Source: an uncultured bacterium (GTDB lineage: Bacteria; Hydrothermota; Tepidihabitantia; SM23-42; JAOAFX01). Taken from it: 64,000 bases of DNA. Position 1 is the first letter of the stretch, and every line of letters begins with the position of its first letter. The DNA lies in contig CAZLGA010000003.1 in NCBI GenBank assembly GCA_964559225.1, positions 2,619 to 66,618 on the forward strand, read 5' to 3'. A program made the translations under genes and the position numbers. Below, piece after piece: positions 14,801-59,852 of the stretch. The notes beneath the pieces are model-generated. The model searched no databases. It was not told the origin of the DNA and saw nothing but the letters and a program-made list of their open reading frames with translations.

Positions 14801-14834
14801 AGACCGGTTAAACGGGCAATGCGACCAACACCCG
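11485..14834 (+). repeat. 3350-bp direct repeat, copy 2
   Basis: Matches 6880-10229. Confidence 0.9.
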
Positions 14835-26950: not shown

Positions 26951-29900
26951 TTAAATCTCCAGTAATCTGGTATATTCTTGCTTTTTAGTAAAATACGCAC
27001 GATTCTCCGGTTTCAATCTTGACTTGATGTCATCAAGAACATAAAGTGCCTTACAGCCATAATAATGTGCCTGTTCAATCTCATTATGTTCATAATAAAA
27101 TAGTGCAAGTTTACACAATGCCTGCCCAATCAATGGTGGATATTTTAATGTCTCACTGATAGTAAGTGCCGTTTTAAGATAATCAATCGCCTTTATCTCA
27201 TCAATGTCAGAAAGTAATATATAACAATAAAATTCAATTTCTTTATTGTTCAATTTTTGCGCCAGATTTAATGCACTATTAACAAATTCCCTTGCCCTTT
27301 CAACCTGATTCAGATTTATCAGGCTTATAGATTTTTTTAGATTAATCTCTGCCAGTAAATTATCACGCACCAGTAAGGAAATCTTATTATCAACAATATT
27401 TAAATAACGATTGACTTCAGTCTCATTTTTTTGCATCGCCTCAATTATCGCTAAATTAAGCGCAGATTTTAAACTGATTTCAAAGCCAATTTGCTCGGTC
27501 AGACTGAATGCCTCCTGAAAATATCGTTTTGCATTTTGTCCATTACCCACCTGATAATAATTTTCTCCAATTAAATATTTCAATTCTGCAAGATTGAGTA
27601 TTTCATTATCTTTTATTAAATCACTTTGTGCGTAGTTTAGGTACTCAAAACTTAGTTCATAATTTCCGAGGTTTTGATGCATTTTTGAAAGATTCAACAA
27701 ACACGGTAATTCGCCTTCTTTATAATCCTTATTGCGTGCGGTGGCCCAAGCAAGATTATAGTTCAATAAACTCTTCTCAGGTTCATTTTTCGCCTGATAA
27801 AGCTTACCCAAACCAGTATAAAGTAATGTAAGAATATCAACCATCTCTTCATTACACTTCTCAATTGCACCGATATATAGATCTTCCGCCTTTTTAAATT
27901 CGCTAAGTAAATAACAGGCAACGGCCAAGCGCTCGGTAAAAAGAAGGTTCCATTTCAATAAATTCAATTGGTGGGTATTTTCTCTGCCCTGTTCGGCTAT
28001 TGCCTTCATTCGCTGGATATCGCCTTTCAATTCATAAAGGTCACTAAGATTTAATTGACAGTCAATTATTTTCTCAACATCAATTACCCCGATATGTTCT
28101 TCTTCAATTCTTAAAACAGTATTGTAAAAATTCATTGCAGGTTCAATTGCATATAAAGTTTTTGCTTTATCACCCGCCAACTTGAAATAATAACCCGCCC
28201 TTTCAAATCTTTCACAGGATAGAAACTGTTGAGCAAGAACTTCATAATACTCAGAAAGGCAATTGGCATAAATATTTTCGAGTAATTCTGCAATCCTTTT
28301 GTGAATATCCTTTCTTTTTTTAATTGGCAGAGTTGTATATACCGCATCCCTTAATAGATTATGCCTGAAGATATATACCGGGTCTTCGCTGTCGCGAAAC
28401 TGGACAATATAATCTTCTTTTATTAAATAATCAAGTCGCTCCTGTATGTCGGGCACATTACCCAAAAGGTTTGTAATAATCTTTCGCGTAAAGCTGTATC
28501 CTATGACCGATGCATAATCAATCAATAAGCGATGAGCAGAAGAAAGAGCATCTATACCCGACATCACAACACCGTACAGATCATCAAGGAAAGGTAACCG
28601 TCTTTCTTTTTCCAAATGCCATTTACCCTCTTCATTTTGTTTGATAAGCTGGATTCTCTTCACATGCCTTATCGTTTCAATAACGAATAATGGATTGCCT
28701 CCGGATATACGAAATATGAACTCTGTAAGCGTTTCATCCACATCACAATTTAAAACATACTTAGTCAAATCTTTAACTGTATCAAAAGAGAGAGGAGTTA
28801 AATTAATGGACTCAAAGGGTTGATTAATTTTACCACTTATGTCATCTATAAAATTAACCATTAATAAAAAAATCGGGAAATCCGAGAGTTCATTAACAAA
28901 ATAATTGACCAACATTTTACTCAAATTGTCTGCTCGATTGAATTCTTCAAAAATCAAAATTAATGGTTTTTTATTACAAATTACCCTGAGAATATTTTTT
29001 ACCGCGCTAAATATTTCTTCTTGAATCTTCTGTAATTTATCACCCCAAACCCGTCGCATATCCGTTATAAAAAGATGCTTTAGACCTTGTGCATCCTGTA
29101 ATGTCAGATTATTGTTTAGCACAAATTTATCGATTTTTTCATCAATTTTTTTTATATCATCATATTCACTCAGGTTTAAAAGTTCCCTAAAGAACAATTT
29201 AAATGGATAATATGGACTATGAATCTCTACCGCACAATAACTTTCAAAAACATTAAAATTTCTGTCCCGTTTAATAAACTCGATAAATTCTTCTTTAAGT
29301 CTGGTCTTACCAATACCCATCTTACCTGTTATTGCACAAATTTTAAGAGTTTTTGTTTCATTCACCATTCTAACAGTATTTACCAATTTTTCAAATTCCT
29401 TTTCTCTTCCCAACAATGGAAATTTAGATGTCACTTTTTTTCTTTTTTCTTTTAATAACCCTTTAAGCCTATAGATTTTAACAGAACCAGTTCTGCCCTT
29501 AACCTTTCGTTCTCCGACGAAATCAACATCTACAATATTAGAAACTCCATCATAAACAGAACTACTTAAGTATATCTCATCAGGTGGGCAAATTTGAGTC
29601 AGCCGTGCTGCTACATTAACCGTATCGCCAATAATGGTTAAATAAGAGAGATTCTCTATGACATAACCAAAAAATATCCAGCCGGTATTCACCCCGAATG
29701 ATATACGCCAATCACCTAATTCCTTTTTTGTAACTTTATGCTGATAATAATCCTTTATCGCTAAAATGCACTCTATTGCCCTCTCGGGGTCATCACGATG
29801 TGACCTCGGAATACCAAAAGCAGCAAGGATACGATTATCAGGAAAAATTTTATTAGTAGCACCCGCGTATTTTTTTATAATATTCTCACAATCTTCCATT

Positions 29901-30133
29901 GCTTCAGCAAGATAAATTGCATTCTGACGGATTTTTGACTTATCTACAATCGTCGCTGTATTAATAAAATTAACAAAAAATAAAGTAACAACACGAGATT
30001 CACCACCCCATAATTTAACATGCTCGCTATCGATTTGAGATTCTTCGGAATAAACGAGTTTTGCCCCGCAATTAGGGCAAAATTTGTATAACTCTAAAAT
30101 TTTTGAAAAGTCGCAGAAATTACACTCCCCCAT
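26951..30133 (-). CDS. Zinc ribbon - class III cyclase (C2-like) - STAND NTPase - TPR protein
   Basis: CNFC...CPNC; LTIIGDTVNVAARL intact, first Asp lost (FFVNF); GKMGIGKT; YIFRHNLLRDAVY; TPRs; start moved to ATG 30133 behind TTGACA-N16-TATACT. Confidence 0.85.
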   Translation of the reverse strand: MGECNFCDFSKILELYKFCPNCGAKLVYSEESQIDSEHVKLWGGESRVVTLFFVNFINTATIVDKSKIRQNAIYLAEAMEDCENIIKKYAGATNKIFPDNRILAAFGIPRSHRDDPERAIECILAIKDYYQHKVTKKELGDWRISFGVNTGWIFFGYVIENLSYLTIIGDTVNVAARLTQICPPDEIYLSSSVYDGVSNIVDVDFVGERKVKGRTGSVKIYRLKGLLKEKRKKVTSKFPLLGREKEFEKLVNTVRMVNETKTLKICAITGKMGIGKTRLKEEFIEFIKRDRNFNVFESYCAVEIHSPYYPFKLFFRELLNLSEYDDIKKIDEKIDKFVLNNNLTLQDAQGLKHLFITDMRRVWGDKLQKIQEEIFSAVKNILRVICNKKPLILIFEEFNRADNLSKMLVNYFVNELSDFPIFLLMVNFIDDISGKINQPFESINLTPLSFDTVKDLTKYVLNCDVDETLTEFIFRISGGNPLFVIETIRHVKRIQLIKQNEEGKWHLEKERRLPFLDDLYGVVMSGIDALSSAHRLLIDYASVIGYSFTRKIITNLLGNVPDIQERLDYLIKEDYIVQFRDSEDPVYIFRHNLLRDAVYTTLPIKKRKDIHKRIAELLENIYANCLSEYYEVLAQQFLSCERFERAGYYFKLAGDKAKTLYAIEPAMNFYNTVLRIEEEHIGVIDVEKIIDCQLNLSDLYELKGDIQRMKAIAEQGRENTHQLNLLKWNLLFTERLAVACYLLSEFKKAEDLYIGAIEKCNEEMVDILTLLYTGLGKLYQAKNEPEKSLLNYNLAWATARNKDYKEGELPCLLNLSKMHQNLGNYELSFEYLNYAQSDLIKDNEILNLAELKYLIGENYYQVGNGQNAKRYFQEAFSLTEQIGFEISLKSALNLAIIEAMQKNETEVNRYLNIVDNKISLLVRDNLLAEINLKKSISLINLNQVERAREFVNSALNLAQKLNNKEIEFYCYILLSDIDEIKAIDYLKTALTISETLKYPPLIGQALCKLALFYYEHNEIEQAHYYGCKALYVLDDIKSRLKPENRAYFTKKQEYTRLLEI

Positions 30134-30320
30134 GCTAAAATAGTATATACAAAATTTATAAAGTGTCAATAGTGATGGTTAGTAGGTGCCGGGTTTATTA
30201 GTTCAGGATGATTCGTCATAAGAACAGTTTATTCCTGAAGATGAGCGATATTATGTTGATACGGCATGGTGAAAAATTCAAAAAATTTGAACAAATGTCG
30301 TGTTAAATGTCTTCAATTAT

Positions 30321-33752: not shown

Positions 33753-33867
33753 ATAACACGTTCCCAAAATTTTGAAGCTTGTAATAATTATACCTGTTTG
33801 GAAGAAAAAGTCAACAATCAAAAAACAAATCCTTGACAATTTTCTATACATCATTATACTAATTGTG

Positions 33868-35430
33868 ATGGCTGTAAATATACAGGAAGTCGCGATAGAC
33901 CTCATTAAAACAATAAAAGCAGCACAAATCTATCAAACAAGTCATCCAAGTTTCAAAAATTTTTTTACCCAGTTTTACAAAGATATCACCCAGTATCTAA
34001 AAACCAGTTATGAACTCATTCTCAAAATAGAAAGATTTTCAATACGATACGAAGAAAGAATTATCTATGAAGAAACTGAAAAAGATATCAGTGTTGCCTT
34101 CAGACTCTTCAAAGATGGAATAAGGGAAATTAAATTTACTGAAGGTATCACAGAAGATGAACTATTGGTCTTTGTAGAAATCATAAGCCGTTCTGACCGT
34201 GACCAGGATATTGCTTTAAATCTTTGGGAATGCGATTTTTCACATATAACTTTCTATGTTGTAGAAGAAGAGGAAGAAGAGACACTCGTATATACCATAC
34301 CCGAATTACCAAAACTTGAAATAAATTATGATGATACGGTGCGAGGAATTCTAACCAAAGAAAAGATTGACTTTGCCGATAAAATCTCTACGGAAATAAC
34401 CCCCGAGGAATTAAGAACTTTAAAATCGGAAATCGGTGAAATAGAAAGTCAAACCGAACTTGGTATTGTAATCACGACATTGATTGATGTGTTAAAAAAT
34501 ACAAAATCGCCAGAAGTCATTGAGGCACTTGCTGAAATCCTTGAACTCTGTATCAATAGTAATGATTTCAAAAATGCAATTTTAATTGTAAATTACCTGT
34601 GGAATTATGCAGATATAAACCTCATCCCAAGAATAGAAAACGAAGGAATGATTGCAAGTTTTGCCGAACTACCGGATGCTCTTGATAACCAATCATTCAG
34701 CGACTTTGTTGCCCTGATTGGCTTTTTCTCAAAAAAAACAATTCCCTGGTTTATCCGCATTCTAAAAAATGTAAAAAATGATGAGCGCTTGCGGGTTCTA
34801 CAGGAACGACTGGCTTATATCTGTCAGGGTGATGTTGAACCAATTTTAATTTTTTTAAAAGAAAGGGACATTAGAGTTCTAACAAGTGCAATTGTAATCC
34901 TGGGAATTATAAAAAACCCTTCTGGTATTTCACACTTAAAAGCCTTAGCTCTGCATCCTTCTCCTCTGGTACGAAAGTCAATAGTAGACGCCCTAACTGA
35001 ATTTGGTGATACCAAAATGATTTCTGATTTCCTTGAAGATACGGATGTAAATGTAAGGATAAGGGCACTCCAGGCTCTGGAAAAATTAGGAGGGTACAGT
35101 CCTATTTATCAAAAGTTGATTAAAACAATAAAGCACCGTGAATTTCTTAATTTAAATTACAATGAACAGAAGGCATATTTTAATTGTCTGGTTGCTAATG
35201 GGAATAAAAAGCTCATAAAAGACCTGGAAAAAATTTTATTTAAATGGGTTTTATTCGGTAAACAGAAATATTTAGTAAAAAGACAATTATCAGCGCAAGC
35301 CCTTGCGAAAGTCGGTAATGAAACCGCCATTTCAATTCTCAGAAAGGGAATGCAGAAAAGGAATGAAGATATAAGGGCGGTGTGTGAAACTGCCTTGAGA
35401 TTTACAGAAAGGAAAAATAAAAATGAGTAA
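33868..35430 (+). CDS. HEAT repeat protein (partner of HD-GYP gene)
   Basis: IYQTSHP...FKDGIREIKF N-domain; HEAT repeats (PLVRKSIVDAL, VNVRIRALQAL); ATG 33868 lies 7 nt after TTGACA-N16-TATACT. Confidence 0.75.
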   Translation: MAVNIQEVAIDLIKTIKAAQIYQTSHPSFKNFFTQFYKDITQYLKTSYELILKIERFSIRYEERIIYEETEKDISVAFRLFKDGIREIKFTEGITEDELLVFVEIISRSDRDQDIALNLWECDFSHITFYVVEEEEEETLVYTIPELPKLEINYDDTVRGILTKEKIDFADKISTEITPEELRTLKSEIGEIESQTELGIVITTLIDVLKNTKSPEVIEALAEILELCINSNDFKNAILIVNYLWNYADINLIPRIENEGMIASFAELPDALDNQSFSDFVALIGFFSKKTIPWFIRILKNVKNDERLRVLQERLAYICQGDVEPILIFLKERDIRVLTSAIVILGIIKNPSGISHLKALALHPSPLVRKSIVDALTEFGDTKMISDFLEDTDVNVRIRALQALEKLGGYSPIYQKLIKTIKHREFLNLNYNEQKAYFNCLVANGNKKLIKDLEKILFKWVLFGKQKYLVKRQLSAQALAKVGNETAISILRKGMQKRNEDIRAVCETALRFTERKNKNE

Positions 35431-36790
35431 GCACGATAAAGATTTTATTACCAACCTTTATGCCCTTATAAAAGCGACTTTTGTCTATGATTTTAACAAC
35501 GATGTTGTGGTAAATCTTGTAAATAAGATTATGAGTCAGGCAACAGCTTTACTCCAAACAAGCAATCAGATTGAAATTATGAGATATCGCGATTATATAT
35601 TTTTTAATAAAATAAGAATGCGCTTTGAAATCGAAGGTTATGCGAGTTTACAATTCATAGAGGACAATTTAAAAAAACTTGGAATAAAATCAATTATCTT
35701 ATTACCAGGTTTAAAAGCCCAGGAAATACTGAAATTTGCATCCCTCTTTAAACTTAACCGAGAGGGATTTATTCAAAAATATAATGAAATCAAATTTAGC
35801 TCAATTAATGTTGAATTTTATACCGAGCAGGAAGAGACAATTCCTGAATTTCTTAAAGATGGAGAACAAATAAAAAAGACATATTTTAAGGCGTTAAAAG
35901 TAACAAAAAATTTAATACAGAACCTCTGGAATCGTCAACCTGTCGATACTAAAAGTTTTCGCAGGGTAATCTATACATTGATTGATAGTTTGAGTCAGGA
36001 TGAATTTGGATTAACTGCCCTCACTGCTATAAAAAATTTTGATGAATATACATATAACCATTCATTGAATGTCGGTGTCCTTTCTCTGGCTGTTGGTCAG
36101 CGCCTTAACCTGGAACGGAAAAATCTTGTAAAACTTGGAACTAGTGGATTACTCCATGATATTGGGAAAGTAGCAATTCCAAAAACTTTGATTGATAAAA
36201 ACGAACCACTGACGAAAGAAGAATGGGAAATTATGAAAAAACATTCGGTTTTTGGAGTAAGTGAAATAATAAAAACAAGGGGGCTGGACGATATTGCCTT
36301 TGCTTCACTTCTGGCAGCTTATCAGCACCACTGGAATTATGATGGAAGCGGTTATCCAGAAAAACTAAATCCCAAAATGCAACCCAATCTCTTTGCCCGG
36401 ATAATTCGCATCTGTGATGCCTATGATGCGATGACCACATCAAGGCCCTATCAGATTCTGGCCTACCTCCCTGCTGTAGCAATCCGAGTTATCTGGGTGC
36501 ATGCCGGGACTTATTTTGACCGACTCCTTACTAAAGTTTTCATCCAGATTTTAGGAATTTATCCGGTGAGCAGCTGTGTTGAGCTTAATAATGAAGAAAT
36601 CGCGATTGTTTTACGTCAGAACCCTGCTCATATTGATAGACCGATTATCAAAATTGTTTTGAATAGTAAAAAAGAAAAAACAAATGGACCTATTGTCGAC
36701 CTTGGTTTAGAGAAAAATCTAAATATTCTGAGGGCAATTTATCCACAAAAATATGATATAAATCCTGCTGAACATCTTATTACAATATAA
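35423..36790 (+). CDS. HD-GYP domain phosphodiesterase
   Basis: YTYNHSLNV, LLHDIGK, HHWNYDGSGYP, ICDAYDAMTTSRPY. Confidence 0.88.
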   Translation: MSKHDKDFITNLYALIKATFVYDFNNDVVVNLVNKIMSQATALLQTSNQIEIMRYRDYIFFNKIRMRFEIEGYASLQFIEDNLKKLGIKSIILLPGLKAQEILKFASLFKLNREGFIQKYNEIKFSSINVEFYTEQEETIPEFLKDGEQIKKTYFKALKVTKNLIQNLWNRQPVDTKSFRRVIYTLIDSLSQDEFGLTALTAIKNFDEYTYNHSLNVGVLSLAVGQRLNLERKNLVKLGTSGLLHDIGKVAIPKTLIDKNEPLTKEEWEIMKKHSVFGVSEIIKTRGLDDIAFASLLAAYQHHWNYDGSGYPEKLNPKMQPNLFARIIRICDAYDAMTTSRPYQILAYLPAVAIRVIWVHAGTYFDRLLTKVFIQILGIYPVSSCVELNNEEIAIVLRQNPAHIDRPIIKIVLNSKKEKTNGPIVDLGLEKNLNILRAIYPQKYDINPAEHLITI

Positions 36791-38367: not shown

Positions 38368-38484
38368 GAAAATTGGTACTCGTTTGATGATTGCAAAAAG
38401 CGAAACGGTTTCTTATATTTACTTGGGAACAACGACTGACGAAACGCTCTTCGAAATCGTTTACCGATAAACGATCTGTTAGTA

Positions 38485-38825
38485 GGGAACCCTCCCCAAT
38501 AATCTGGTGGTTTGCCTGATGAGAAATTTTTTTCTGGTAGCGCAAACCTGATAGATTAAGGGATGATGTGCAAGAACAGGTTAACGAGGGGGATTAAAGG
38601 TTTCCACGAACTTTTCGGGTTTGTTTAGAAAAGTGAGTGGAAAAAAGGGGGAACCCTCCCCAATAATCTGGTGGTTTGCCTGATGAGAAATTTTTTTCTG
38701 GTAGCGCAAACCTGATAGATTAAGGGATGATGTGCAAGAACAGGTTAACGAGGGGGATTAAAGGTTTCCACGAACTTTTCGGGTTTGTTTAGAAAAGTGA
38801 GTGGAAAAAAGGGGGAACCCTCCCC
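38485..38825. repeat. 164-bp tandem repeat (2 copies plus 13 bp) bounded by GGGAACCCTCCCC
   Basis: Boundary 13-mer at 38485, 38649 and 38813; the two units read identically. Confidence 0.9.
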
Positions 38826-38830
38826 CTTTA

Positions 38831-38904
38831 GGGCGGTTAGCTCAGCTGGTTAGAGCGTCGGTCTCACATACCGAAGGTCACTGGTTCAAGTCCAGTACCG
38901 CCCA
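38831..38904 (+). tRNA. tRNA-Val(CAC)
   Basis: GGGCGGT acceptor, anticodon arm TCGGT-CT-CAC-AT-ACCGA, GGTTCAAGTCC. Confidence 0.93.
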
Positions 38905-39285
38905 TACAAAATTTTCCCAAATCTTGTTTTTGGTTTGGTCAAAAATATCAATATCTTGCATTGCGAATAGATGTAAAAAATTGGAGATAAAATAACAATT
39001 CTGAAGACCCGATTCTTCCAATCAAAATGATAAATGCCCAGCCATTTTTTTGCTGAACCCTTCGGGGGTTAGTTTGGTTGTGGTGTCTTATGATTTTACC
39101 ACTTGTCCAATCGGAAAATTTAAAACCCTGCTTGCGATAGAATAGATCCATCTTAACCTGGTAACGGTGTGTGTATCCATTTACATTCGGGAATTGACAG
39201 GTATTAAATTATGAATATACTTATTATAGGAATTTCGCTGCCGAGGAATTTTTTGAAAGAGTTGAGCCCATACAAGGAGGTTATT

Positions 39286-41364
39286 ATGTGTTATAAGACA
39301 AAGATTAGTATAACTATATTGGCAGTAGCCCTATTATGGGGCGCTGAAAACATCCCGGTATTGACAAATGGAAATAGCATGTCGAATGATTTACTCATTG
39401 ATACACCTTTAGAATTAAAAACTCCGCTGACGAGTTCCCAGCAAACGCTGCCTTCTATCCTTGCAATTCCTTACTCCATTGAGTGGCGAATATCACTTCC
39501 AGATACCTATCATGTGGGTTTGACAACAGTCTGGGACACAATTCTCTGGGTATCTGAAGGTTCTGCCACTACTGGTGCTGATGTACCAGAGATCTATGTA
39601 TACAACCTGAGAACCCTGGCACTCATTGATTCGTTCAATCAACCAGGGGTTCCTATGGGTTGGGGCTGGCGTGATATGACAACAAGAGGTGATTCGGTTT
39701 TTGCTTCTTATAGTGCTTCAATTCAGGTAATCCATGCGCCAACCCGCACTGTGGCACGGTCATTTACTCCGGGTACTGGATTAAATCCCCACCGGGGATT
39801 GGCATGGAATCCGGGTGATTCTATCTATGCTACTAATTTTGCCTCGCCAATATGGCAGTTTTATAAAGCCGCGCCTTTTAGCCCGCGTTCTGTTGCCAAC
39901 ATTGATACCTCTTACGGCCTTGGCTATGATGCCAACGGCTTTTTATGGATGTCGGTTCAGACTGGTCTCTCCCAGGGTAAGATTGCAAAGTTCAGCTATC
40001 CTGCCCTTATAAAACTTGACGAGCAGTTGATACCAGAGATTTTAGGTATTGCTGGTGGCTGTGAGATGTGGCGTGATACATTCTTGCTTTATCTCAATCA
40101 GGGAACACCTGATGAGGTTGTCTGTATCAGGCTTTATTTCCCGGCAAATGATGTTGGCGCAGATGCAGTAAGGAGCCCTGCAAGGGCGGTTAATCCCGGT
40201 TCTTCTATCGCACCGATTGCAAGGATTAGAAATTTTGGGGCGAACCCAATTTCTAATATCCCGGTAACTTGCTGGATTGATTCTGCTGGTGTCAGAATTT
40301 ATAACCAGAGCCTTACTTATCCTGGTCCACTTGCGGGTGGTGATACAGCCAGAGTAACATTTAGCCCTAATTGGCAAGTTGGTCCTGCAGGAACAAATTA
40401 CCAGGTAAAAATGTTCACGAGTCTAACAGACGATGCCAACCGTGCAAATGATACTACTAGTCAAACAACCATATCTTTTAATATTAGAGATACACTGGTT
40501 GCACCCTGGCGTCTGGTTATTCCCACCATTGACGGAAACATTCAACCTGCAGAATGGGCCGATGCTCTGATTTGGGATATCTCAGATGTTTTGGGACAAA
40601 ATGGCGTTGCCCGACCCGCAGGTAGTGCTATATTCTACTGCAAACATGATTCGCAGAATGTCTATTATGCCGTGGCAATGCCACCGGCATTAGCACGCAA
40701 TGATTATGACCAATTTGGCGCCTATGTTGATGAAAACTATAACCGCGCCTGGGCTGGAGATTCCTCTGAAGGTAATCACTGGTTTACTTTTATTGGTGTC
40801 GATACAACAATTTATCGTTCTCTACCCAGTGGTTGGATACGATGGGCAAGTGGGAATGGATTATCGCGTGTAAGCACGGTATCAGGACATCTTCAATTTG
40901 AGTCAGTAGTAGCAAAAGGTGCATTGAAATGGAATTACACTATTTCACCAAGAGATGATACGGTTGCCTTCTACATCTATTCTTTAGACCAACCTGGAGA
41001 CAATTATTATGGTATGTGGCCCACGACAATGCCGGCTGCTCAATGGAACAATCCTGTATATTATGGAACTCTAATCTTTTCATCGAGCCCGGTCACGGTT
41101 GAAGAAAGGGAGGCTATAACTCATAAGGACATACAAATCTGCAATCCATTGAGAATGCCTTTAGTCCTTGATAACATCTCAAGACTGGAAATTTATGATG
41201 TGACTGGTAAGAAGATTACAGAAATAAAGAAATCGGGAAACCATGATAAATTAGTATGGAATGGCAAGGACAGATATGGCAAAGCAGTACCATCCGGAAT
41301 CTACTTCTTGCGTATGAAAACCGAACAAGGAACTTTCACCAGAAAAGCAGTCTACCTAAAGTAG
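39286..41364 (+). CDS. Secreted multidomain protein (beta-rich N-terminus, CARDB-like Ig, DOMON/CBM9-like, FlgD/T9SS-like CTD)
   Basis: SD AAGGAGG before ATG 39286; signal peptide; NDVG...VNPGSSIAPIARIRNFG...DANRANDT; PTIDGNIQPAEWADA; WNGKDRYG...SGIYF. Confidence 0.65.
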   Translation: MCYKTKISITILAVALLWGAENIPVLTNGNSMSNDLLIDTPLELKTPLTSSQQTLPSILAIPYSIEWRISLPDTYHVGLTTVWDTILWVSEGSATTGADVPEIYVYNLRTLALIDSFNQPGVPMGWGWRDMTTRGDSVFASYSASIQVIHAPTRTVARSFTPGTGLNPHRGLAWNPGDSIYATNFASPIWQFYKAAPFSPRSVANIDTSYGLGYDANGFLWMSVQTGLSQGKIAKFSYPALIKLDEQLIPEILGIAGGCEMWRDTFLLYLNQGTPDEVVCIRLYFPANDVGADAVRSPARAVNPGSSIAPIARIRNFGANPISNIPVTCWIDSAGVRIYNQSLTYPGPLAGGDTARVTFSPNWQVGPAGTNYQVKMFTSLTDDANRANDTTSQTTISFNIRDTLVAPWRLVIPTIDGNIQPAEWADALIWDISDVLGQNGVARPAGSAIFYCKHDSQNVYYAVAMPPALARNDYDQFGAYVDENYNRAWAGDSSEGNHWFTFIGVDTTIYRSLPSGWIRWASGNGLSRVSTVSGHLQFESVVAKGALKWNYTISPRDDTVAFYIYSLDQPGDNYYGMWPTTMPAAQWNNPVYYGTLIFSSSPVTVEEREAITHKDIQICNPLRMPLVLDNISRLEIYDVTGKKITEIKKSGNHDKLVWNGKDRYGKAVPSGIYFLRMKTEQGTFTRKAVYLK

Positions 41365-41589
41365 TAAATCCAATGAACTGTAGGCAATTACAAAAACAAC
41401 TGATTAAATAGGTAAAAAAAATAGAGTACGTTAACCACTTAATTTCCAAATGTTGACGTACTCTATTTTTAATTTTAATTATCCCACTGCGAACGAGGCG
41501 TAATAATGACTGATACAGGAATCTTTGCAAAGGAACAGGACGTCTTTCACCAAAATAAAATCTTACCCAGATTAAATTAAGATTATTAT

Positions 41590-41720
41590 GATAAACTGGA
41601 TTATCATTCTTTACAATAAGCCCGAGAACGAACACAACACATATGATGTTGCTGGGTATAATCCATAATCGCGCTATTGATGAACTCCACCCCATCATTG
41701 GGATGTCGAGTATAAGGGGA
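41590..41720 (-). pseudogene. Decayed DDE (rve integrase-core) transposase fragment
   Basis: NDGVEFINSAIMDYTQQHHMCCVRSRAY then frameshift to KNDNP, resembling DNGSEFIN...TRSRPYxKNDN. Confidence 0.5.
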
Positions 41721-42181
41721 TTATACCAAGTTTATACCTAAACACCACCCTTAGAAAAATAAAATATTAGTTTTGAAACAATGAAAAGCACTTTTCCTTG
41801 GTGTCCCGTACTATATATATATAAATTTTTACTCATTTCTATAGACTATGTCTTCATAAATATTGCTTCAAGCCTTCACTTTATAGTGCAGGGACAGGCA
41901 AATAAGCCACCAACCCCATCGTCTTTGTGATGGGAGCTGTGCCATTTTTACCAAAAATAGCATAGAATAGCATCATCCTTCAGAACGGTCAGAATAATGC
42001 AAGCCTACGGACAGACTTCTTCAATGCGATTTCATTCAGAATTTCAAACCCCTGCCAAAATGCCATTTCCGGTCTCGCATACCAAAGGTCGGGTGTTCAA
42101 TGCACTCACCCGCCAGTTCTCGTTATTGGTGCATACATCAAAACAAAGCGTGTATCTAATTTCTAACGAAGTGAGGATAAG

Positions 42182-45100
42182 TTAAATTTGTAATAAATTT
42201 TTGAAATTTTTGAATTCGCTGTATATCTTTTTATTTAGATAAATATTGCGCGGTTCTCCCGCAGGTATTTTACTTAAGATTTCCTGGAGTATCTTATCGG
42301 CAACGGATAAATGATTCTTTGTTTCAGTTATCTTCGTTAAATAATAATAAACCTGAGCCAAATAAAAATTTATTATAAATTTAGTCTCGTTATCCTGCTC
42401 AACCTTTTCATATCCAAGGGCGGTTTTTAACAAATCAAGGGCAGTTAAAAGATGTGTAACGAGCAATTTCTTTTCAATAGTTGCTTGTTTTATCTTCGCC
42501 TTTACCCTGCCAATTATACAACTCAGTTTACTTTCAGGAACAAATAATTCTTCACACTTTTTTTCTAATTCTTCGAACATATTAAATCCCTGTTCATAAT
42601 TGCCTTTTTCTATCTCTACTTGAGCAAGACTTATCATTACTTCATTTGCCATCCTTACACTTCCTAATTTAATAAATATCTCATAAGCCTTTTTAAGATA
42701 ATATTCTGCATTCTGTATATCACCCTTCTCAAGATAAATATAACCAAGCCCCATATTTCCGTAACCATTACCGAGTTGATTATTTATCTGGGCATTTATA
42801 TGTAGATATTCATTAAATTTTTCTTCTGCTTTTTCTAATGCACCAAGTTGGTAGTATGTGTCGCCGATATTGTAAGTTGCAATCGCACGGGCAAGAAGAT
42901 TACCTGTTTTTAAATCAATTTCAAGTGATTTGTAAAGATATTCAAGTGCTTTATAATAGTCAGCTTTTCGCATATAATAGCCACAAATATTATTGTAAAT
43001 AACTGCTATGCCAGGTATATCATCTAACATTTCATATATCTTTAATGCCTTATTATACGCCTCAAAAGATTTTTCATATTCCCCTGTATGAGAATAGACT
43101 GAACCCAGCTGATTATAAACCCTCGCAATTTTTTTCCTGGTTTGAATATCAGGAGCATCTTTAACATTTGTTAATATCTGTTCGAGGACACTGCGTGCCT
43201 CTCTTAATTCGCCTTTAAGATAGTATATCCAGGCAATACCAAGCCAGGTATCAAATTTTTCTTCCTCCGAAAAATTTATAAGTAATTTTAATGATTCGTT
43301 ATAAATTTCCAGCGCCTTTCCATAATCACTAATTCTCTGATATGTATCTGCCATTTCATTAAGTATTTTGACCTTATCAAGTGTTGTGTGCGCTATCTTA
43401 AATGCCCTTTCATAAAGTTCAATTGCATCATCACTATACCCTATTCTGCTATATATTCCCCCTAACTTGCGCATTGTGTCAAAAATGGTTTTACTATTTT
43501 CATCGGTATCGGGTTTTAATTCTTTAAGCACATACACATAATACGAAATTGCCTCCATATTCGCGTAGCACTTTTGTGCATTTTCACCCGCTTTCAGAGC
43601 ATAATAAATTGCCTTATCTTTACAATCCGTCTTTGCATAATGTTCAAAAAGAATATCATAAAACTCAGCAAGCCGCTCCGAAAATAATGACTCAATAGTC
43701 TTTGCAACTAAAAGGTGTAACTCCTTCAGTTTTTTCTCAGGAATAGTTTTATAGATTGATTCACGAACCAGTGCATGATTGAATGTATAATCCTGGTTAT
43801 TATTTGTATATATGTAACCAATTTCTAAGAGTGGGCTTATTAGATTATCAAGATTATCCCAGAACCGCGTAAATCCCTGTAATACTTTTTTATTAAATGT
43901 CCTTCCCAAAACCGCCATTTCAGAAAGTAAATCTTTCAACTCAAAATTCAATGTATCATATGATGCCTGAATTATACCTTCAATTGTATAAGGAATATCA
44001 AATTGAATTTCTCTTTCGCTCGCCAACCACTCATTACCGCGTCGATAAATTATACCTCTCGAAATTAACAACTTGATTAATTCTTCAAGGAAGAATGGAT
44101 TGCCGCCAGCATCATTTACTATCTTTGCAATTAATTCTTCAGGCAGTTTTGATATCTTAAGTAAATTTCTTGATAATTCCAGAGTTTCTTCTTTGGTTAA
44201 GGGTTTAAGATAAATTTCATCTAATCTAATTTCATTCTTTAATTGTTCTTTTATCTGCCAGAATGGTTTATTTTTTTCAGGGCGCGAAATTAAAATTATA
44301 AGTGCTTTAATTCCACTATGTGTCTGTAATAAAAATCGCAACAACTCAAGAGTGGATTCGTCGGCAAGATAGAGGTCGTCAATACAATAAACAGTAGGGT
44401 TTTTTTCTACATAATTTTCAAGAATCTGACTTACGGCATTAAAAATCTGCAATTTTATTTCCTCAGGTTTTAAATACTTAACTTTTTCTTCGTATTTGGC
44501 GACAATTTTAATATTAAAAAGTTCTGCAATATACGGAAATATATCTTCTGCCTTCTCACCCATAAGTTTTTCAATGGAAGTTAAAAGTTTTGCCATTATT
44601 AACATTTCACTATCTTCGGTTCTTATTTCACAAATTTGTTTAAAAATTTCCACAAAGGGATGATAGAGTGTTTCACGATAAGGTGAACATCTACCAATAC
44701 ACCAGTTTATATTCTTTACCCGCTCCAGTGCCATACTCAATGATTGTGTGAACAGTTCTTCAATTAGCCGCGACTTTCCGACCCCTGCCTCTCCAAGTAT
44801 AAGAACAATATTACCTTTTCCCGAAAATAATTCTTGAACAAGGCTTGAAAGAAGTATTAATTCCTGTTTCCTATCCACAAGCGGTGAACTTAAACCCTCA
44901 ATTCCTCTTCTCTTTATAAATCCGGTCTTCTGTCTATAGACATTATACATGACCATTTCCTGTTTTGAGCCTTGAGGTAAAAATCGCAAAGGTTCAGAAA
45001 ATTCAAAAACCGGTTGAGTGATTTGATAGACTTCGTCGCCCACCAGCAATTCGTTTTCCTTTGCATATTCCATTATCCTTGCTGCAAAATTTACCGCATC

Positions 45101-45493
45101 GCCCATTACTGTATATTCGGATTTAATCTTTGAACCAACAGATGCAGCATAGACCCGTCCCAGGTTTACACCAATCCTTAAACCGAGAGGCTTTTTGATT
45201 TTTTGTTTTAATTTTAAAATCTGATTGAGCATTAATAAACCTGATTTGATCGCCCTTTCCGGGTCGTCTTCATGGGCAGATGGCACACCAAATGTCGCCA
45301 TTAAAATCTTACCCTCATGTTTGTCAATATTTCCTTCATACAATTTAACTGCCCCATTCAACTCATTAAATACTATCTTGATAAATTCAACATATTCTTC
45401 AGTATCCAATTCCTGCTCCCAGGAATCTATCTGTGTAACTTCAGCAAACAGAATTACACAGGGTTTTACCCTGGCTTCTCTATTTTTCTCCAT
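42182..45493 (-). CDS. Class III cyclase (C2-like) - STAND NTPase - TPR protein
   Basis: FAEV and KHEGK (second Asp lost), YTVMGDAVNFAARI intact; GEAGVGKS, IDDLYLAD, GGNPFFLEE, YTFNHALVRESIY, many TPRs. Confidence 0.88.
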   Translation of the reverse strand: MEKNREARVKPCVILFAEVTQIDSWEQELDTEEYVEFIKIVFNELNGAVKLYEGNIDKHEGKILMATFGVPSAHEDDPERAIKSGLLMLNQILKLKQKIKKPLGLRIGVNLGRVYAASVGSKIKSEYTVMGDAVNFAARIMEYAKENELLVGDEVYQITQPVFEFSEPLRFLPQGSKQEMVMYNVYRQKTGFIKRRGIEGLSSPLVDRKQELILLSSLVQELFSGKGNIVLILGEAGVGKSRLIEELFTQSLSMALERVKNINWCIGRCSPYRETLYHPFVEIFKQICEIRTEDSEMLIMAKLLTSIEKLMGEKAEDIFPYIAELFNIKIVAKYEEKVKYLKPEEIKLQIFNAVSQILENYVEKNPTVYCIDDLYLADESTLELLRFLLQTHSGIKALIILISRPEKNKPFWQIKEQLKNEIRLDEIYLKPLTKEETLELSRNLLKISKLPEELIAKIVNDAGGNPFFLEELIKLLISRGIIYRRGNEWLASEREIQFDIPYTIEGIIQASYDTLNFELKDLLSEMAVLGRTFNKKVLQGFTRFWDNLDNLISPLLEIGYIYTNNNQDYTFNHALVRESIYKTIPEKKLKELHLLVAKTIESLFSERLAEFYDILFEHYAKTDCKDKAIYYALKAGENAQKCYANMEAISYYVYVLKELKPDTDENSKTIFDTMRKLGGIYSRIGYSDDAIELYERAFKIAHTTLDKVKILNEMADTYQRISDYGKALEIYNESLKLLINFSEEEKFDTWLGIAWIYYLKGELREARSVLEQILTNVKDAPDIQTRKKIARVYNQLGSVYSHTGEYEKSFEAYNKALKIYEMLDDIPGIAVIYNNICGYYMRKADYYKALEYLYKSLEIDLKTGNLLARAIATYNIGDTYYQLGALEKAEEKFNEYLHINAQINNQLGNGYGNMGLGYIYLEKGDIQNAEYYLKKAYEIFIKLGSVRMANEVMISLAQVEIEKGNYEQGFNMFEELEKKCEELFVPESKLSCIIGRVKAKIKQATIEKKLLVTHLLTALDLLKTALGYEKVEQDNETKFIINFYLAQVYYYLTKITETKNHLSVADKILQEILSKIPAGEPRNIYLNKKIYSEFKNFKNLLQI

Positions 45494-48400
45494 TCTTCAA
45501 TAATCTCCCTGTTGTGTGGTAAATTCAGAAATTTATTTTGATATTCAAGATTTCTTATTTTCTGGGCGCGAGAAATAACGATGTCATAAGCAAATTGCAA
45601 AAATTTATATGCCTCGCTCGGTCTTTTAGTTTTATTGAGTATTTTATAATGGATATAGTAAATTTGCTCTTTATTGCCTTCAATCTCATGAAGACTTAAA
45701 AGTTTCTCAACCGCCCAGGTTGAGTATTGAAATGCCTTTTTTATATCATCTCTTTCTAACCATAAAAGCGCGTAATATGCTTGTGCATATATCTCATACG
45801 ACGGATTCTTTACAGCCCGTGCCGAAGAAAGCGCTATTTTAAACTCATCCTCAGCATAATCTAACTGCCCCATCTTCAAATACACCAACCCAAGTAAGTT
45901 ATGATAATATGCCAGATATTCTTTTGAGCCAATCTCTTTTGATATTGCAATTGTATTCTTCAGATATCTTACGGCTTCGTCATATTTACCAGTTTGAAGA
46001 AAAGAGGTTGCAATATTTCCATAACGGATTGCCATTCCTGATTTATTCTTTATTGACTCATCAATTTGTAAAGCCTTAATAAAGCATTCAAGTGCCTTAT
46101 CAATATCGCCTAACACTCCATAAAAGTGGCCTATATTTGATAATCTTATCGCCTCTCCTTTTCGGTTTAAGTTTCTCTGATCAATTTCTAACGCCTCTTG
46201 AAAATTTTTTAATGCCTCTTCATAATCGCCATATTGAATATACACTCCCCCCATATTAGAAAGTATCTGGGCGACGAAAAGTGAATCTTTAATCTTACGG
46301 GCAATATTGAGGGCGTCTTTGTAATAAATCAGGGACTGTTCAAAGTTATTTAGGTAATAATAAACATTAGCAATGTTTACATTCAATCTGCTCAATGCAA
46401 TTCTATCCTCTACTTTTTCATACATTGTCTTTGCTTTTGTGTAATAAATAAGCGCTTGGTCTTTATCTCCAAGTTTCCAGTAACAGAGCCCAATGCCTTT
46501 AAAGATGTTTCCTTTGAGTAAATAATTGTCGCTTTCCTCCATAGAATCTAAAGCCAAATTATAAATTTTTAAAGCCTGAGAAATTTCATTCTTATTATAA
46601 TAATTAATGCCGATCTTTTCAAGTATCAATGTTTCTTGTTTTTCTTTATTCAATATATTTAAAATTTCTAATGCACTATCATAATCTGCAATTGCTTCAA
46701 AGTATTCAGCCCGTGCAAGCATTGCCTTCCGCTGATAATCAAAATTATTTGTTTTTACCGTAAGTTCATACAATTCATCTATTGTTTTTGATTCCTCCAT
46801 CCTCTCACCAACCAAATGAAGTAACCTTATTTTTTTAATATATATATCACATCTTTCATCTTCTTTTGTGGTTATCAGGTCTAAAAGTTCGTTGTAAACT
46901 GATAAACATTTCTCATAAGAGAATTCTTTTTCAAGATAATCTGCCCACTTTCGTAAGAAGATACATGCCTCGTTTATATCGCCTGCTTCTTTTAAGTGAA
47001 ATGCAATAAGCCCATAATTTTCCAATTGACCCGAATTATTTTTTAATGTATTTGCAATCTTTAAATGAAGTTCCTGTCGGATTTTTTTGTTAACCGGCCT
47101 CTTATACATTCACGTAAGGTATTATGGTTAAAGTATAATTTTGAATCTTTGTGATATAGTAATCCTCTACCAAAACAGTAATTTAAAAATTCTTTTGCAT
47201 CTGATAACAACTGTGGGATTATTTGATAATTTATTTCATCATTTATGAGGCTAAGAATGTATAATCCATTTAAATACTCTCTTGGTATTGTATCAACAAG
47301 CGCTTCACTAATTTCTTTTAGTTTCAGGGAATCGGGTAATTCTCGTAATTCCCTTCCTAAAGGAAATGAATTTTTAATTAAAATACTGATTTCCACTGCA
47401 TAATATGGAATACCACGGCACAAATTTATAATTTCTTTTTTAAATTCATCGGTTACAACATAATCCTGAAGGTGATAAGTAACAATGTCTAAAATAGCAC
47501 AATCAGGTAATGGCTTAAGTTCTATAAATTCAACATCTTTTTTAACATCTCCTATTATTTTCTCCATAATCTGACAATTTTTATCACGCACCTCAATAAT
47601 TATAGTAATTCTGTTATTTTGAATATTCCCCTTGAAATATTCAAGAAAACTCAGTGATTGCTCATCAATAACTTCTATATTTTTTAAAATGATTATTAAT
47701 GATTTTGTCCTTGATGATTGCAAAAACACACTGGACATTTCCCTAAATAATTTAGACCTATAATTTTCTTCACTGGGTGGAAGAATAAAATCTGGGGCAA
47801 TCTGATATACAATTTTCATAAAAGATGAACAAGGAGTAAAATAATCCTGTTCGTTAAAAGTGGTTTCATATACACTAAATCTATTTTCTTTGTTAATTTT
47901 CTTTAAAGATTCATTTATAAAGTCAGTTTTTCCAATTCCCATCTCGCCCGAAATGATTATAAATTGTGGCATCTTTAGAAGTGCGTTGTAAAGAATTTTA
48001 AATTCTTCATTTCGATATTCAAAGAAAAAAGGAAAAGCAACATCCGGAATAATTTTCTCCTTAACCTGAAAAGCATCCTTGGATTTCTCAAACAAGAAGC
48101 AATCTTTATTAGTATTATAACACTCTTCATTAACAAGAATCTGTCCTTTTTCGGCAATTTCTTCAAGATGGGAGACTTCCTCAAATAGATGTCCGTATAT
48201 TTCTTCTCCTAATATCAAAATCTCTCCTGTCCCAACACCTATATGAACATCAACTTTATAACGCATTTTTTTTATTGCCTCCCGAATCTTCAAAGCACTC
48301 CATAATGCATTACTTGAATCATTTCCATATGAGCGTGGAAAACCAAATATGGCAACCACCCTGTCCCCCTCGTGTCTGATTATCGTTCCATAATGACTAT

Positions 48401-48533
48401 GAATAATTAAATCAATAGTATTAAAACATTCATTTATAAAATCAGTTGTTTTCTCCGCCCCAATCTTATTGGTTAACTCAGTAAAGCCAGAAAGGTCAGC
48501 ATAAAGAATCGTTGCCAATTTCTTTTCATTCAC
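45466..48533 (-). CDS. Class III cyclase (C1-like) - STAND NTPase - TPR protein split by a frameshift at an A7 run
   Basis: 47061-48533: YADLSGFT, RHEGD, GEMGIGKT; 45466-47109: TPRs; joined by -1 shift at ACA AAA AAA (plus-strand T7 at 47082-47088). Confidence 0.75.
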
Positions 48534-58355: not shown

Positions 58356-59852
58356 ATGGAAAATATCATAAGAAAAATTGGTAGAGAGCAACTTGAGATT
58401 CTTTTTGAAATGACCAGTTCTCTCAGTTCTACCCTGGAACTCTCAAAAATTCTTGATATCATCATTGAAAGTGCCAAAAACCTTCTTAAGGCAGAAGCAA
58501 GTTCTCTTTTATTGCTTGATGAAACAACAAATGAATTATATTTTGCAAGTGTTACCGGCGAAGTATCTGAAAGGTTGAAGAATCTAACTGTTCCACTTGA
58601 CAAAGGTATTGCCGGTGCCTGTGTGCGTGAAGGTAGACCAAAGATAGTAAATGATACAACTAAAGATAAAGATTTCTATTCAAAGATTGATAAATCAACC
58701 GGCTTTGTTACGCGTTCAATAATTGCCGCGCCATTAAAGATTACGGGAAAAACAATCGGTGTAATTGAAGTATTAAATAAAAAAGACCATCAGGAATGGA
58801 CAGAAGAAGATAAAGATTTAATAATGCTCATTGCTTATCAGGCAGCACAGGTCATTCAAAATGCACAAAACCATTTAAGAATCCATGAATATAAGGAGTT
58901 ACTCAAAGATGAAATTGATTCAAGATATGCACTCATTGGGAGAAGTGAACAGTTTAAAAATGTGCTAAATCTTGCGGAAAAGGTTGCTTCTGCCAACACA
59001 TCGGTTTTGATTTTGGGTGAAAATGGCACTGGGAAAGAATTGATTGCGCGCTATATTCACCGTTTAAGTCCGAGACGGGACAAACCATTCATTGCGGTCA
59101 GTTGTGCTGCAATACCATCCACGCTCTTGGAAAGCGAACTGTTCGGTTATGAAAAAGGCGCATTTACTGGAGCATTAACCCTACACAAGGGCAGGTTTGA
59201 ACTCGCAAATCAGGGCACGATATTCCTCGATGAAATCGGTGATATGCTTCCTGAAACACAGAGTAAACTCTTAAGAGTATTACAGGAAAAAGAGTTTGAA
59301 CGACTTGGTGGAACAAAGACAATAAAGGTTGATGTACGGGTCATTGCGGCAACAAATCAAAATCTTGAAGAAAAGATTAAACAAAAGTTATTTAGAGAAG
59401 ATCTATTTTATCGTTTAAATGTTTTTCCTATATATATTCCACCTTTGAGAGACCGAAAAGATGATATTATAATAATTGCCGAACATTATCTAAGTTATTA
59501 TTCAAAACAAATGAATAAAGATATAAAAAAATTCTCAGATGAAGTTATTGAAAGAATGATAAATTATCCCTGGCCCGGCAATGTTCGTGAACTCCAGAAT
59601 GTAATTGAAAGGGCAGTAGTGCTGACTAACAGCGATACGATAAAATCTGATGCATTAATGCTTCCCTCAGAACCAATTGAACTACCACTAACCTATGACA
59701 AAAGTCTGAAAGAAGCTATAGATGAGTTCAAGATGAAGTATATAAAAGAAACGATCAAAAAATGTGGTGGCAATCAAAGAAAAGCAAGCAAAATTTTAAA
59801 GATTCAGCCAACATATCTATCAAGATTACTCCATAAAAAAACACAGCCATAA
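58356..59852 (+). CDS. GAF - sigma54 enhancer-binding AAA+ - HTH protein
   Basis: GAF domain, [41 protein letters not shown], Fis-type HTH. Confidence 0.92.

Follow-up and report, generated by a model that had tools for sequence, protein, structure and literature searches.

Two neighbouring minus-strand genes, which we call locus 2, lie within a 64,000-nt stretch of contig CAZLGA010000003.1 (hereafter the window) from an uncultured bacterium of the Hydrothermota, and each of them begins with a class III cyclase domain. We refer to the upstream gene as C1-like and to the downstream gene as C2-like. In our reading, to which we assign a probability of about 0.68, locus 2 is a two-gene operon for an obligate heterodimeric class III adenylyl cyclase that has one active and one degenerate site and is conserved in WOR-3/'Stahlbacteria'. 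The initial annotation of this DNA had noticed that each cyclase domain retains the catalytic residues that its partner has lost; this observation is real except for a frameshift in the C1-like gene, which was missed, and the interpretation of the two genes as a complementary pair is well supported by the comparison of sequences. The components of locus 2 are as follows:

47061-48533, minus strand: 5' part of the C1-like gene, an open reading frame (ORF) of 490 aa with a GTG start (ORF list, Pfam, PDB alignment and AlphaFold2 (AF2) model)
48054-48530, minus strand: class III cyclase domain of the C1-like gene (approximately residues 2-160), after which a degenerate STAND/AAA_16 NTPase follows
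45466-47109, minus strand: 3' part of the C1-like gene, an ORF of 547 aa with the TPR sensor region
45466-45493, minus strand: 28-nt overlap of the C1-like end (EEWRKIEKPG and the stop codon) with the C2-like start at ATG
42182-45493, minus strand: intact C2-like gene, 1103 aa (Pfam, PDB alignment and a 41-member orthologue family)
44909-45493, minus strand: cyclase domain of the C2-like gene (residues 1-195)
remainder of the C2-like gene, minus strand: competent STAND NTPase (approximately residues 200-575) and TPR sensor (approximately residues 576-1103)

The ORF list holds three, not two, long minus-strand ORFs between 42182 and 48533. Pfam matched Guanylate_cyc (E 5.4e-14) and AAA_16 (E 7e-7) in ORF 47061-48533, TPR alone in ORF 45466-47109 (TPR_12 E 1e-47, and TPR_MalT) and all three kinds of domain in ORF 42182-45493 (Guanylate_cyc 4.8e-17, AAA_16 1.1e-19, TPR_12 1.8e-37 and TPR_MalT). 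The earlier claim that both partners are STAND-TPR fusions therefore stands for the downstream protein; the upstream one is split here into a cyclase-AAA_16 ORF and a TPR ORF. The C2-like ATG lies in the context gaagaATGgag with AGGGAG 11 nt upstream of it, which, together with the 28-nt overlap, is consistent with translational coupling.

Every motif that the initial annotation had quoted was found in the translations, which contain ILYADLSGFT, IIRHEGDRVVAIFG, IYGHLFEEVSHLEE and LIIILKNIEVID in the upstream ORF (start 48533), and ILFAEVTQID, IDKHEGKILMATFG, EYTVMGDAVNFAARIME and VYCIDDLYLAD in the downstream ORF (42182-45493). Both domains belong to the class III cyclases, with PF00211 scores of 52.6 bits (upstream) and 62.6 bits (downstream), where the cut-off is 21.9, and both matched Pseudomonas aeruginosa CyaB in the PDB (E 1e-13 for the upstream and 3e-18 for the downstream domain). 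The best PDB stretches for the upstream domain were C1 of ADCY10 (42-214), C1 of AC8 and VC1, and those for the downstream domain were C2 of ADCY10 (290-421) and C2 of AC5, AC8 and AC9. The AF2 model of the upstream domain (pLDDT 91) has a complete cyclase fold with TM values of 0.82-0.88 to CyaB, Rv1625c and RhoGC, and its arm region is shortened. A loss of the last two strands from the C1-like domains, to which an alignment with hidden Markov models (HMMs) had pointed, was rejected because the AF2 model has strands at residues 146-160; the KG motif alone is unrecognisable.

In class III cyclases, the two domains form a head-to-tail dimer, in which one chain provides a pair of Asp and its partner Lys, Asp or Thr, Asn and Arg. 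The catalytic residues of locus 2 were mapped by alignment to the CyaB structure 3r5g, and this residue-by-residue comparison agrees with the C1/C2 complementarity that had been proposed:

48363-48497, minus strand: metal-binding Asp kept in the C1-like domain, D13 (48495-48497) and D57 (48363-48365)
48168-48182, minus strand: transition-state residues lost from the C1-like domain, E118 in place of Asn (48180-48182) and H122 in place of Arg (48168-48170)
45077-45442, minus strand: catalytic signature of the C2-like domain, with E18 in place of the first Asp (Asp1; 45440-45442) and K62 in place of the second (Asp2; 45308-45310)
within the same stretch, minus strand: residues kept in the C2-like domain, K58 (45320-45322), T128 (45110-45112), N135 (45089-45091) and R139 (45077-45079)

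The substrate Lys of the C1-like domain is replaced by R53. A complete catalytic set (two Asp, Lys, Asp or Thr, Asn and Arg) is found in neither chain, as the upstream domain reads D, R, D, -, E, H and the downstream one E, K, K, T, N, R. Taken together, the two chains do make up a complete set: the upstream one contributes both Asp, the downstream one Lys, Thr, Asn and Arg, and this division is conserved in 15 pairs.

Besides the window, 14 further intact pairs from WOR-3/'Stahlbacteria' have a C1-like gene followed by a C2-like gene with the same complementary signature, and this recurrence places the complementarity far beyond chance. The overlap of the two genes is exactly 28 nt in every case (L001, L003, L084-L088, L090-L092, L095, L096, L136, L137 and the window), and in the intact pairs, wherever the contig allows, the C1-like protein has 1020-1051 aa and the C2-like protein 1102-1105 aa. 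All 15 C1-like genes have D-R-D at the Asp1, Lys and Asp2 positions; the Asn position is occupied by Asp or Glu in each of them, and the Arg position by Arg in a single one. Their 15 adjacent C2-like proteins have E (Q once), K, K or R, T, N and R without exception. The wider C2-like family, which comprises 41 proteins of about 1100 aa at 41-88% identity, those with a named source being mostly from candidate division WOR-3, shows the same bias: Asp2 is present in none (K, R, T, S or N stands there) and Asp1 in one; of the other positions, Asn and Arg are conserved in 40 proteins each, Thr in 37 and Lys in 35.

The C1-like family is small and fast-evolving. A word-indexed homologue search with the 490-aa ORF gave three matches, and the family could only be collected with an exhaustive search, in which eight of 1.84 billion cluster representatives fell below 1e-30. 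A scan of a genome collection that was seeded with the C1-like domain alignment and the motifs RHEGDRV and YAD(L/I)xGF found the C1-like gene in 15 species representatives of WOR-3 and 'Stahlbacteria'. The same kind of scan with the full C2-like alignment took up the generic patterns GNPFFLEE and HEEDPERA, and among the matches listed there were only distant cyclase-STAND genes at 24-34% identity.

Pairwise ratios of nonsynonymous to synonymous substitution rates (dN/dS, omega) among the four closest genomes were 0.05-0.13 for the C1-like and 0.02-0.10 for the C2-like cyclase domain. The initial annotation had named relaxed selection at the retained catalytic residues as an outcome that would speak against its proposal; the low dN/dS of both domains shows none. 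Its argument that the pattern is not random decay is strongly supported by the gene order, the 28-nt overlap, the invariant retained residues and the low dN/dS, as well as by the recurrence of the pattern in locus 1, which is described below, and in a third pair from WOR-3.

The asymmetry of the two subunits extends to their NTPases, whose motifs are located as follows:

47664-47948, minus strand: C1-like NTPase, with an intact Walker A, GEMGIGKT (47925-47948), and the Walker B region LIIILKNIEVID (47664-47699), in which K-N replaces D-D
44360-44794, minus strand: C2-like NTPase, with Walker A GEAGVGKS (44771-44794) and Walker B VYCIDDLYLAD (44360-44392), both canonical

The difference in Walker B, to which the initial annotation had drawn attention, is real and family-wide. 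In 13 of 13 C1-like proteins that were aligned, the D-D of Walker B is KN, RN or QY and the Arg of sensor-1 is not conserved, while Walker A is kept; all C2-like proteins have a canonical Walker A (GEAGVGKS), Walker B (hhhhDD) and sensor-1 (SRPE). The C2-like protein can be classified as a STAND NTPase of the MalT type (AAA_16 E 1e-19, TPR_MalT, GEAGVGKS, IDDLYLAD and SRPEK). The C1-like protein cannot, as it scores 30.3 bits for AAA_16 against a cut-off of 32.6 and its Walker B and sensor-1 are degenerate. With the acidic pair of Walker B and the Arg of sensor-1 lost and the P-loop kept, the C1-like NTPase, a diverged relative, probably binds nucleotide without hydrolysing it. It is also the faster-evolving of the two NTPases, as omega is 0.13-0.21 in the C1-like and 0.04-0.09 in the C2-like genes. 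Between the two proteins of the window, identity is 23% in the cyclase domain, 18% in the NTPase and 23% in the TPR region, and this low value for the TPRs implies two quite different sensors.

Split or tandem cyclases with complementary sites are a recurring theme in these sequences, as locus 1, a pair from another WOR-3 genome and tandem relatives show. A second, diverged complementary pair lies in the window:

26309-30169, minus strand: locus 1, whose signatures recur in three close relatives (L133-L135)
26951-30169, minus strand: C2-like cyclase-STAND-TPR protein of locus 1, 1072 aa, signature NKNTNR
26309-26950, minus strand: zinc-ribbon C1-like cyclase of locus 1, 213 aa, signature DQDIAV, directly after the C2-like gene

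Another WOR-3 genome (L110:6630-10405) encodes an adjacent pair of TPR-cyclase proteins of 633 and 625 aa with a 4-nt overlap and the signatures DMDDDK and NKNDNR; their cyclase domains are C-terminal and the NTPase is absent. Most of the cyclase-STAND-TPR proteins that were retrieved have the complete set DKDTNR and presumably homodimerise. In a sizeable minority of relatives (P0132-P0184), a single chain carries two cyclase domains before the NTPase, and several of these are C1-like then C2-like, e.g., P0136 (DKDSVR and EKETNR), P0172 (DRDTTK and SKATNR) and P0184 (DQDTRT and EKNTNR). Tandem forms were also collected at loci L108 and L111-L128, and examples come from cultured Chloroflexales, i.e., Oscillochloris trichoides DG6 (1230 aa) and Chloroflexus sp. 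(1170 aa). Family HMMs assign the first domains of the tandem proteins to the C1 side, together with the small protein of locus 1, and the second domains to the C2 side; such single-chain relatives show that the same two types of domain work together elsewhere. A phylogeny of the cyclase domains had been suggested as a check for separate C1 and C2 clades, and the neighbour-joining tree answered it weakly. It joined the locus-1 and locus-2 C1-like domains as sisters at 47.5% bootstrap, possibly through long-branch attraction. The two C2-like groups formed no clade (8%), and the C1 and C2 domains of one locus never fell together (0-0.5% bootstrap).

The complementary residues and their conservation, the purifying selection, the linkage of the genes and the difference between the NTPases are observed; from them we infer how the two subunits would dimerise, act and be switched on. 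The C1-like subunit would give the two metal-binding Asp, and the C2-like subunit the transition-state Asn and Arg as well as the Lys and Thr that select adenine. If the cyclase domains form a head-to-tail dimer, D13 and D57 would thereby join K58, T128, N135 and R139 in one complete site. Because of the Lys-Thr pair in the C2-like subunit, the product is predicted to be cyclic AMP (cAMP). In the second pocket, the Glu and Lys/Arg of the C2-like subunit would face the Arg and Asp/Glu of the C1-like subunit, a combination that the alignments predict for all 15 pairs; that this degenerate pocket acts as an electrostatic latch or a regulatory site is speculation. Each subunit has its own MalT-type STAND NTPase and TPR sensor, with about 20% identity between the subunits. 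STAND proteins respond to ligand binding with nucleotide exchange and with a multimerisation that joins their effector domains. By analogy, a ligand on the TPR domains may cause a nucleotide-dependent co-assembly that brings the N-terminal half-cyclases together, and translational coupling through the 28-nt overlap would supply both proteins in equal amounts. A more far-reaching version of this scheme is tentative and, taken as a whole, rather doubtful: the active site would exist only inside an asymmetric STAND hetero-oligomer, in which a hydrolysis-dead C1-like and a switch-competent C2-like subunit read different ligands with unrelated TPR sensors and so form an AND gate, the charge-complementary pocket would set the specificity for the partner, and locus 2 would be the unfused counterpart of the design of soluble adenylyl cyclase (sAC), i.e., C1-C2-STAND.

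Several findings weigh against an obligate heterodimeric enzyme. The C1-like gene is frameshifted in the window. The Lys that serves the gamma-phosphate (KG motif) is Gln in 19 of 23 locus-2 C2-like domains and has no recognisable equivalent in the C1-like domain, and the composite site is therefore not canonical in every respect. The Glu that stands at Asp1 in the C2-like domain could in principle still bind metal. Some genomes have a second C2-like paralogue in a C1-C2-C2b arrangement, and pairing therefore need not be strictly one to one. Lastly, C2-like genes without a partner have cyclase-like domains that are under purifying selection (omega 0.14 between two orphans), which indicates that the domain is of some value without a C1-like subunit.

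The frameshift, which the initial annotation had missed, was located by DNA alignment with two relatives, i.e., a WOR-3 metagenome-assembled genome (L001, GCA_039802045.1) and a Joint Genome Institute metagenome contig (L003), whose downstream proteins are 88% and 83% identical to that of the window:

47082-47088, minus strand: A7 homopolymer, one base short of the intact orthologues, at which reading moves to the -1 frame

Both relatives have a single intact upstream gene (1022 aa in L001 and 1021 aa in L003) at the same position with shared flanking genes. The run is A7 in the window and A9 (L001) and A8 (L003) in the relatives, and it is the sole gap in the window sequence across the whole-gene alignment, in which the upstream gene of the window is 85% identical to L001 and 77% to L003. 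The C1-like span is 3068 nt long in the window against 3069 and 3066 nt in the two relatives, and the two ORFs of the window, 47061-48533 and 45466-47109, share 49 nt that are read in different frames. In this genome, the system may be switched off or dependent on slippage, or the missing base may be a sequencing error. Conserved programmed -1 frameshifting was rejected: the run does form a fitting heptamer, A_AAA_AAA, and the -1 frame is that of the downstream ORF, but the relatives need no frameshift and no stable RNA structure lies beyond the run (z -0.33). Occasional slippage at the run may still take place. Separately, the run is present in frame, as A8-A9, in the intact orthologues (L001:5400-5415 and its equivalent in L003), and because it is prone to slippage their genes might yield truncated cyclase-NTPase products at some frequency.

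If the deletion is real and inactivating, locus 2 is being lost in this genome, and the C1-like gene, a pseudogene in the making, would leave only a truncated cyclase-NTPase fragment. This is a serious possibility that still falls short of even odds, and it is compatible with the heterodimer explanation for the family. The single-nucleotide deletion does split the gene, and the same 490-aa product is recorded in both NCBI and Logan, on three contigs, which argues against an artefact of a single assembler, though the two assemblies perhaps come from the same reads. Such losses have occurred elsewhere, as two relatives reduced both genes together to remnants: in L098 (5200-6280), a close relative, intact flanks identical to those of locus 2 surround about 1.1 kb of what is left of the pair, and L094 (7965-8753) holds a 262-aa fusion in which the first part of the C1-like gene is joined to the last part of the C2-like gene. 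For the family as a whole, this joint loss speaks for the heterodimer explanation. Loss in the window is opposed by the TPR part past the break, where dN/dS is 0.13 against L001, as in intact lineages, and relaxed selection is not seen, and by the DNA alignment, which reveals no further stop or indel across the 3068 nt of the C1-like gene. Moreover, sequencing errors and reversible slippage classically occur in homopolymers such as this one, and the window contains 72 A or T runs of at least seven. As a separate observation, internal deletions are recurrent among the relatives (L094, L098, P0128, P0129 and P0130); they join the C1-like cyclase to a C1-like or C2-like tail or remove the NTPase, and they may reflect recombination between paralogues or assembly collapses.

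What happens to a C2-like gene without its partner can be seen at three loci (L138:5001-8273, L139:5001-8276 and L140:3416-6688), where an ABC transporter gene abuts in place of the C1-like gene and the downstream synteny is that of the paired locus L136 (glmS, galT-like, HAD hydrolase and DUF3108 genes). Their cyclase domains are short of further catalytic residues, with the signatures WRRANR (L138), WRRLNR (protein P0034 of L140) and SRSVAR (L139), and the L139 protein no longer has a Pfam cyclase match on record. The ratio of cyclase to NTPase identity is 0.68-0.88 in the partner-less genes and 0.95-1.09 in the others, except for P0045 (0.85), which is a partial sequence. This mixed picture suggests that the catalytic residues are unprotected once the partner is gone and that the domain keeps some role; free decay is not claimed, and a second, non-catalytic role of the C2-like cyclase-like domain seems conceivable.

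These partner-less genes, in which the cyclase-like domain remains constrained despite a greater loss of catalytic residues, lend some weight to the explanation that both proteins are catalytically dead, that their cyclase-like domains are dimerisation or nucleotide-binding modules of two STAND regulators and that the complementarity is incidental. The incomplete catalytic set of each chain and the missing gamma-phosphate Lys point the same way. Nevertheless, we consider this explanation improbable: each subunit retains exactly what the other is without, and does so invariably over 15 pairs; the retained residues erode only where the partner is absent; and a purely structural role would not keep Asn and Arg in one protein and both Asp in the other.

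It could also be that the subunits pair with other cyclase domains or promiscuously; the C2-like protein of locus 2, for one, might join with the small C1-like protein of locus 1. The window does contain two C1-like and two C2-like genes, of which the C1-like gene is broken at locus 2 and intact at locus 1, and the extra C2-like paralogue of some genomes fits such a scheme as well. Against this stand the adjacency and the 28-nt overlap of the genes at 15 loci in at least four genomic contexts, the distribution of locus 1, which one scan of the genome collection found in three close relatives only while the locus-2 pair is much more widespread, and the high divergence between the C1-like domains of loci 1 and 2. 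We regard pairing of this kind as quite improbable. As regards the additional C2-like copies themselves, one lies just downstream of the pair in L088 (4134-12638), the protein pairs P0025/P0032, P0027/P0038, P0023/P0041 and P0024/P0043 are candidate copies from the same genome, and Asp2 tends to be replaced by Thr in the extra copy.

The surroundings of locus 2 are those of an ordinary chromosome. The window encodes type IX-secreted proteins, dnaG, rpoD, gmk, a yicC-like gene, purN, corA, hslU, the EIIA component of a phosphotransferase system (PTS) and yceD, and no mobile-element genes were found in it. The neighbours of locus 2 are hslU, the PTS EIIA gene, yceD, corA and purN, and this flanking synteny is common to five of the closest related loci. 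In distant lineages, the pair adjoins rpoD, a class II aminoacyl-tRNA synthetase gene, or ABC transporter and glmS genes. Across the related loci, no third gene travels with the pair, and the sole mobile-element gene seen beside any pair is an IS110-family transposase upstream in L136. None of the neighbours that were looked at is a recognised defence or effector gene, in line with the remark in the initial annotation that no effector gene is adjacent. A scan for promoters and terminators gave counts near the shuffle expectation.

STAND-TPR proteins include antiphage sensors, and an antiviral role had been left open in the initial annotation; it finds no support in the housekeeping chromosome, the vertical-looking inheritance and the generic nature of the PADLOC cyclase matches. 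At locus 2, PADLOC returned generic PycC and TPR matches only and no match to its STAND models. That the pair is a defence system, i.e., a paired NLR-like sensor that would raise the alarm with a cyclic nucleotide as in Pycsar or CBASS, is highly improbable, as the PycC matches of the two cyclase domains (E 6e-14 and 5e-12) cover the cyclase core only, are weaker than the generic Pfam cyclase matches and reflect homology at the level of the fold, no effector gene is adjacent among the housekeeping neighbours, and the flanks are syntenic in the five closest loci in a window without mobile-element genes. Accordingly, locus 2 has neither the specific PycC match with an adjacent effector of a Pycsar system nor, in its syntenic housekeeping context, the setting of the antiphage STAND/NLR-like proteins (Avs, bNACHT). 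It is also no TOMM kinase/cyclase fusion (TIGR03903), since it scores 207.6 bits against a cut-off of 705.75 and the kinase domain is absent.

Other features of the window were observed alongside. Between corA and the C2-like gene there are about 3.8 kb (38368-42181) with a 717-aa protein that has a type IX sorting domain and a 120-aa ORF; the GC content is about 0.41 compared with 0.34-0.37 on either side, and neither ORF is present in the five closest related loci that were searched (in L001, corA follows after about 290 nt). Beside locus 1, a 725-aa HEAT-repeat protein is encoded at 24129-26306, 2 nt past the small cyclase gene, and a 552-aa HEAT protein that weakly resembles it (BLASTP E 4e-5) is encoded within 33772-36790, where its gene overlaps by 8 nt with a co-oriented gene for an HD-GYP-like (HD_5) phosphohydrolase; the HEAT proteins and the phosphohydrolase may be components of a cyclic-nucleotide pathway. 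A sigma-54 activator with a GAF domain (58356-59852), whose best NCBIfam match is NifA below the cut-off, is a candidate cyclic-nucleotide receiver because GAF domains can bind cyclic nucleotides. At 704-5430 there is a cassette of lexA, a Y-family polymerase (ImuB-like) and a DnaE2-like gene, a combination typical of operons for SOS mutagenesis. The stretch 5728-15934 is a cluster of genes for large secreted proteins whose sorting domains are FlgD_ig and Por_Secre_tail (type IX secretion), among them a 1014-aa protein without a Pfam match and a 1365-aa protein with a 3-keto-disaccharide hydrolase-like domain.

The order of cyclase, AAA_16/STAND NTPase and TPR is one that locus 2 shares with the Rv0386-type cyclases. 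Rv0386, Rv1358 and Rv2488c have an AC-ATPase-TPR architecture (AC, adenylyl cyclase), and the mycobacterial proteins end in a LuxR-type helix-turn-helix. These cyclases differ from the locus-2 proteins in having a complete catalytic set per chain, and Pfam finds no LuxR-type helix-turn-helix in the latter. Locus 2 divides the active site so that one domain gives the Asp pair and its partner Lys, Asp or Thr, Asn and Arg, in the manner of the mammalian membrane ACs, which are C1/C2 pseudoheterodimers, and of the engineered complementary mutants of Rv1625c that are cited in a review (PMC9552081). The mammalian enzymes carry C1 and C2 fused in one membrane protein; the WOR-3 pair, by contrast, is soluble, comes from two genes and is linked to STAND domains. 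According to the same review, bacterial class III ACs homodimerise and a fused dimeric form is unknown in bacteria (PMC9552081).

In sAC (ADCY10), two heterologous catalytic domains are followed by a predicted STAND P-loop region (PMC12802110). By domain layout, locus 2 resembles sAC and the bacterial sAC-like tandem cyclases, in which C1-type and C2-type domains form one active and one degenerate site and a STAND region comes after them. In addition, the upstream protein aligns best to C1 of sAC (42-214) and the downstream protein to C2 (290-421), and single-chain proteins with C1-like, C2-like and STAND-TPR regions are among the nearest relatives of the pair. The tandem C1-C2 arrangement on one polypeptide before a single STAND region is not found at locus 2, however, where the halves are separate polypeptides from overlapping genes, each with its own NTPase and TPR sensor and one of the NTPases degenerate. 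Soluble guanylyl cyclase (sGC) alpha/beta and the fungal RGC/NeoR are two-gene obligate heterodimers with one catalytic and one pseudo-site and a sensor on each subunit (PMC3591389, PMC8815786, PMC10622942). Locus 2 likewise has two separately encoded class III subunits with their own sensor domains. Unlike these eukaryotic enzymes, which produce cGMP and have haem or rhodopsin sensors and coiled-coil linkers, it is bacterial, its predicted substrate is ATP and its assembly is proposed to be driven by STAND domains. What sets it apart from sAC, sGC and RGC together is that it is bacterial and split into two overlapping genes, with STAND-TPR regions on each half, one of them degenerate. A likeness to paired NLRs and to heteromeric STAND or AAA+ assemblies, in which adjacent paralogous STAND genes include one without hydrolysis motifs, exists at the level of design only; the paired-NLR analogy of the initial annotation, which rests solely on the degenerate C1-like NTPase, is unsupported. 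A keyword search of the literature, which had partial coverage and is not proof of novelty, found no description of a natural two-gene class III heterodimer in bacteria.

Complementary C1/C2 sites are usually taken as a eukaryotic feature. If our interpretation of locus 2 is true, the WOR-3 pair would be a tractable, soluble bacterial model for the origin of cyclases with one active and one regulatory site. It would also be a model for the function of the STAND region in sAC-type cyclases, which is still unexplained for human sAC (PMC12802110), and for the way in which two STAND sensors may co-assemble to switch on an induced-proximity effector. For annotators, the pair is a warning that cyclase domains that look inactive may be halves of a working enzyme.

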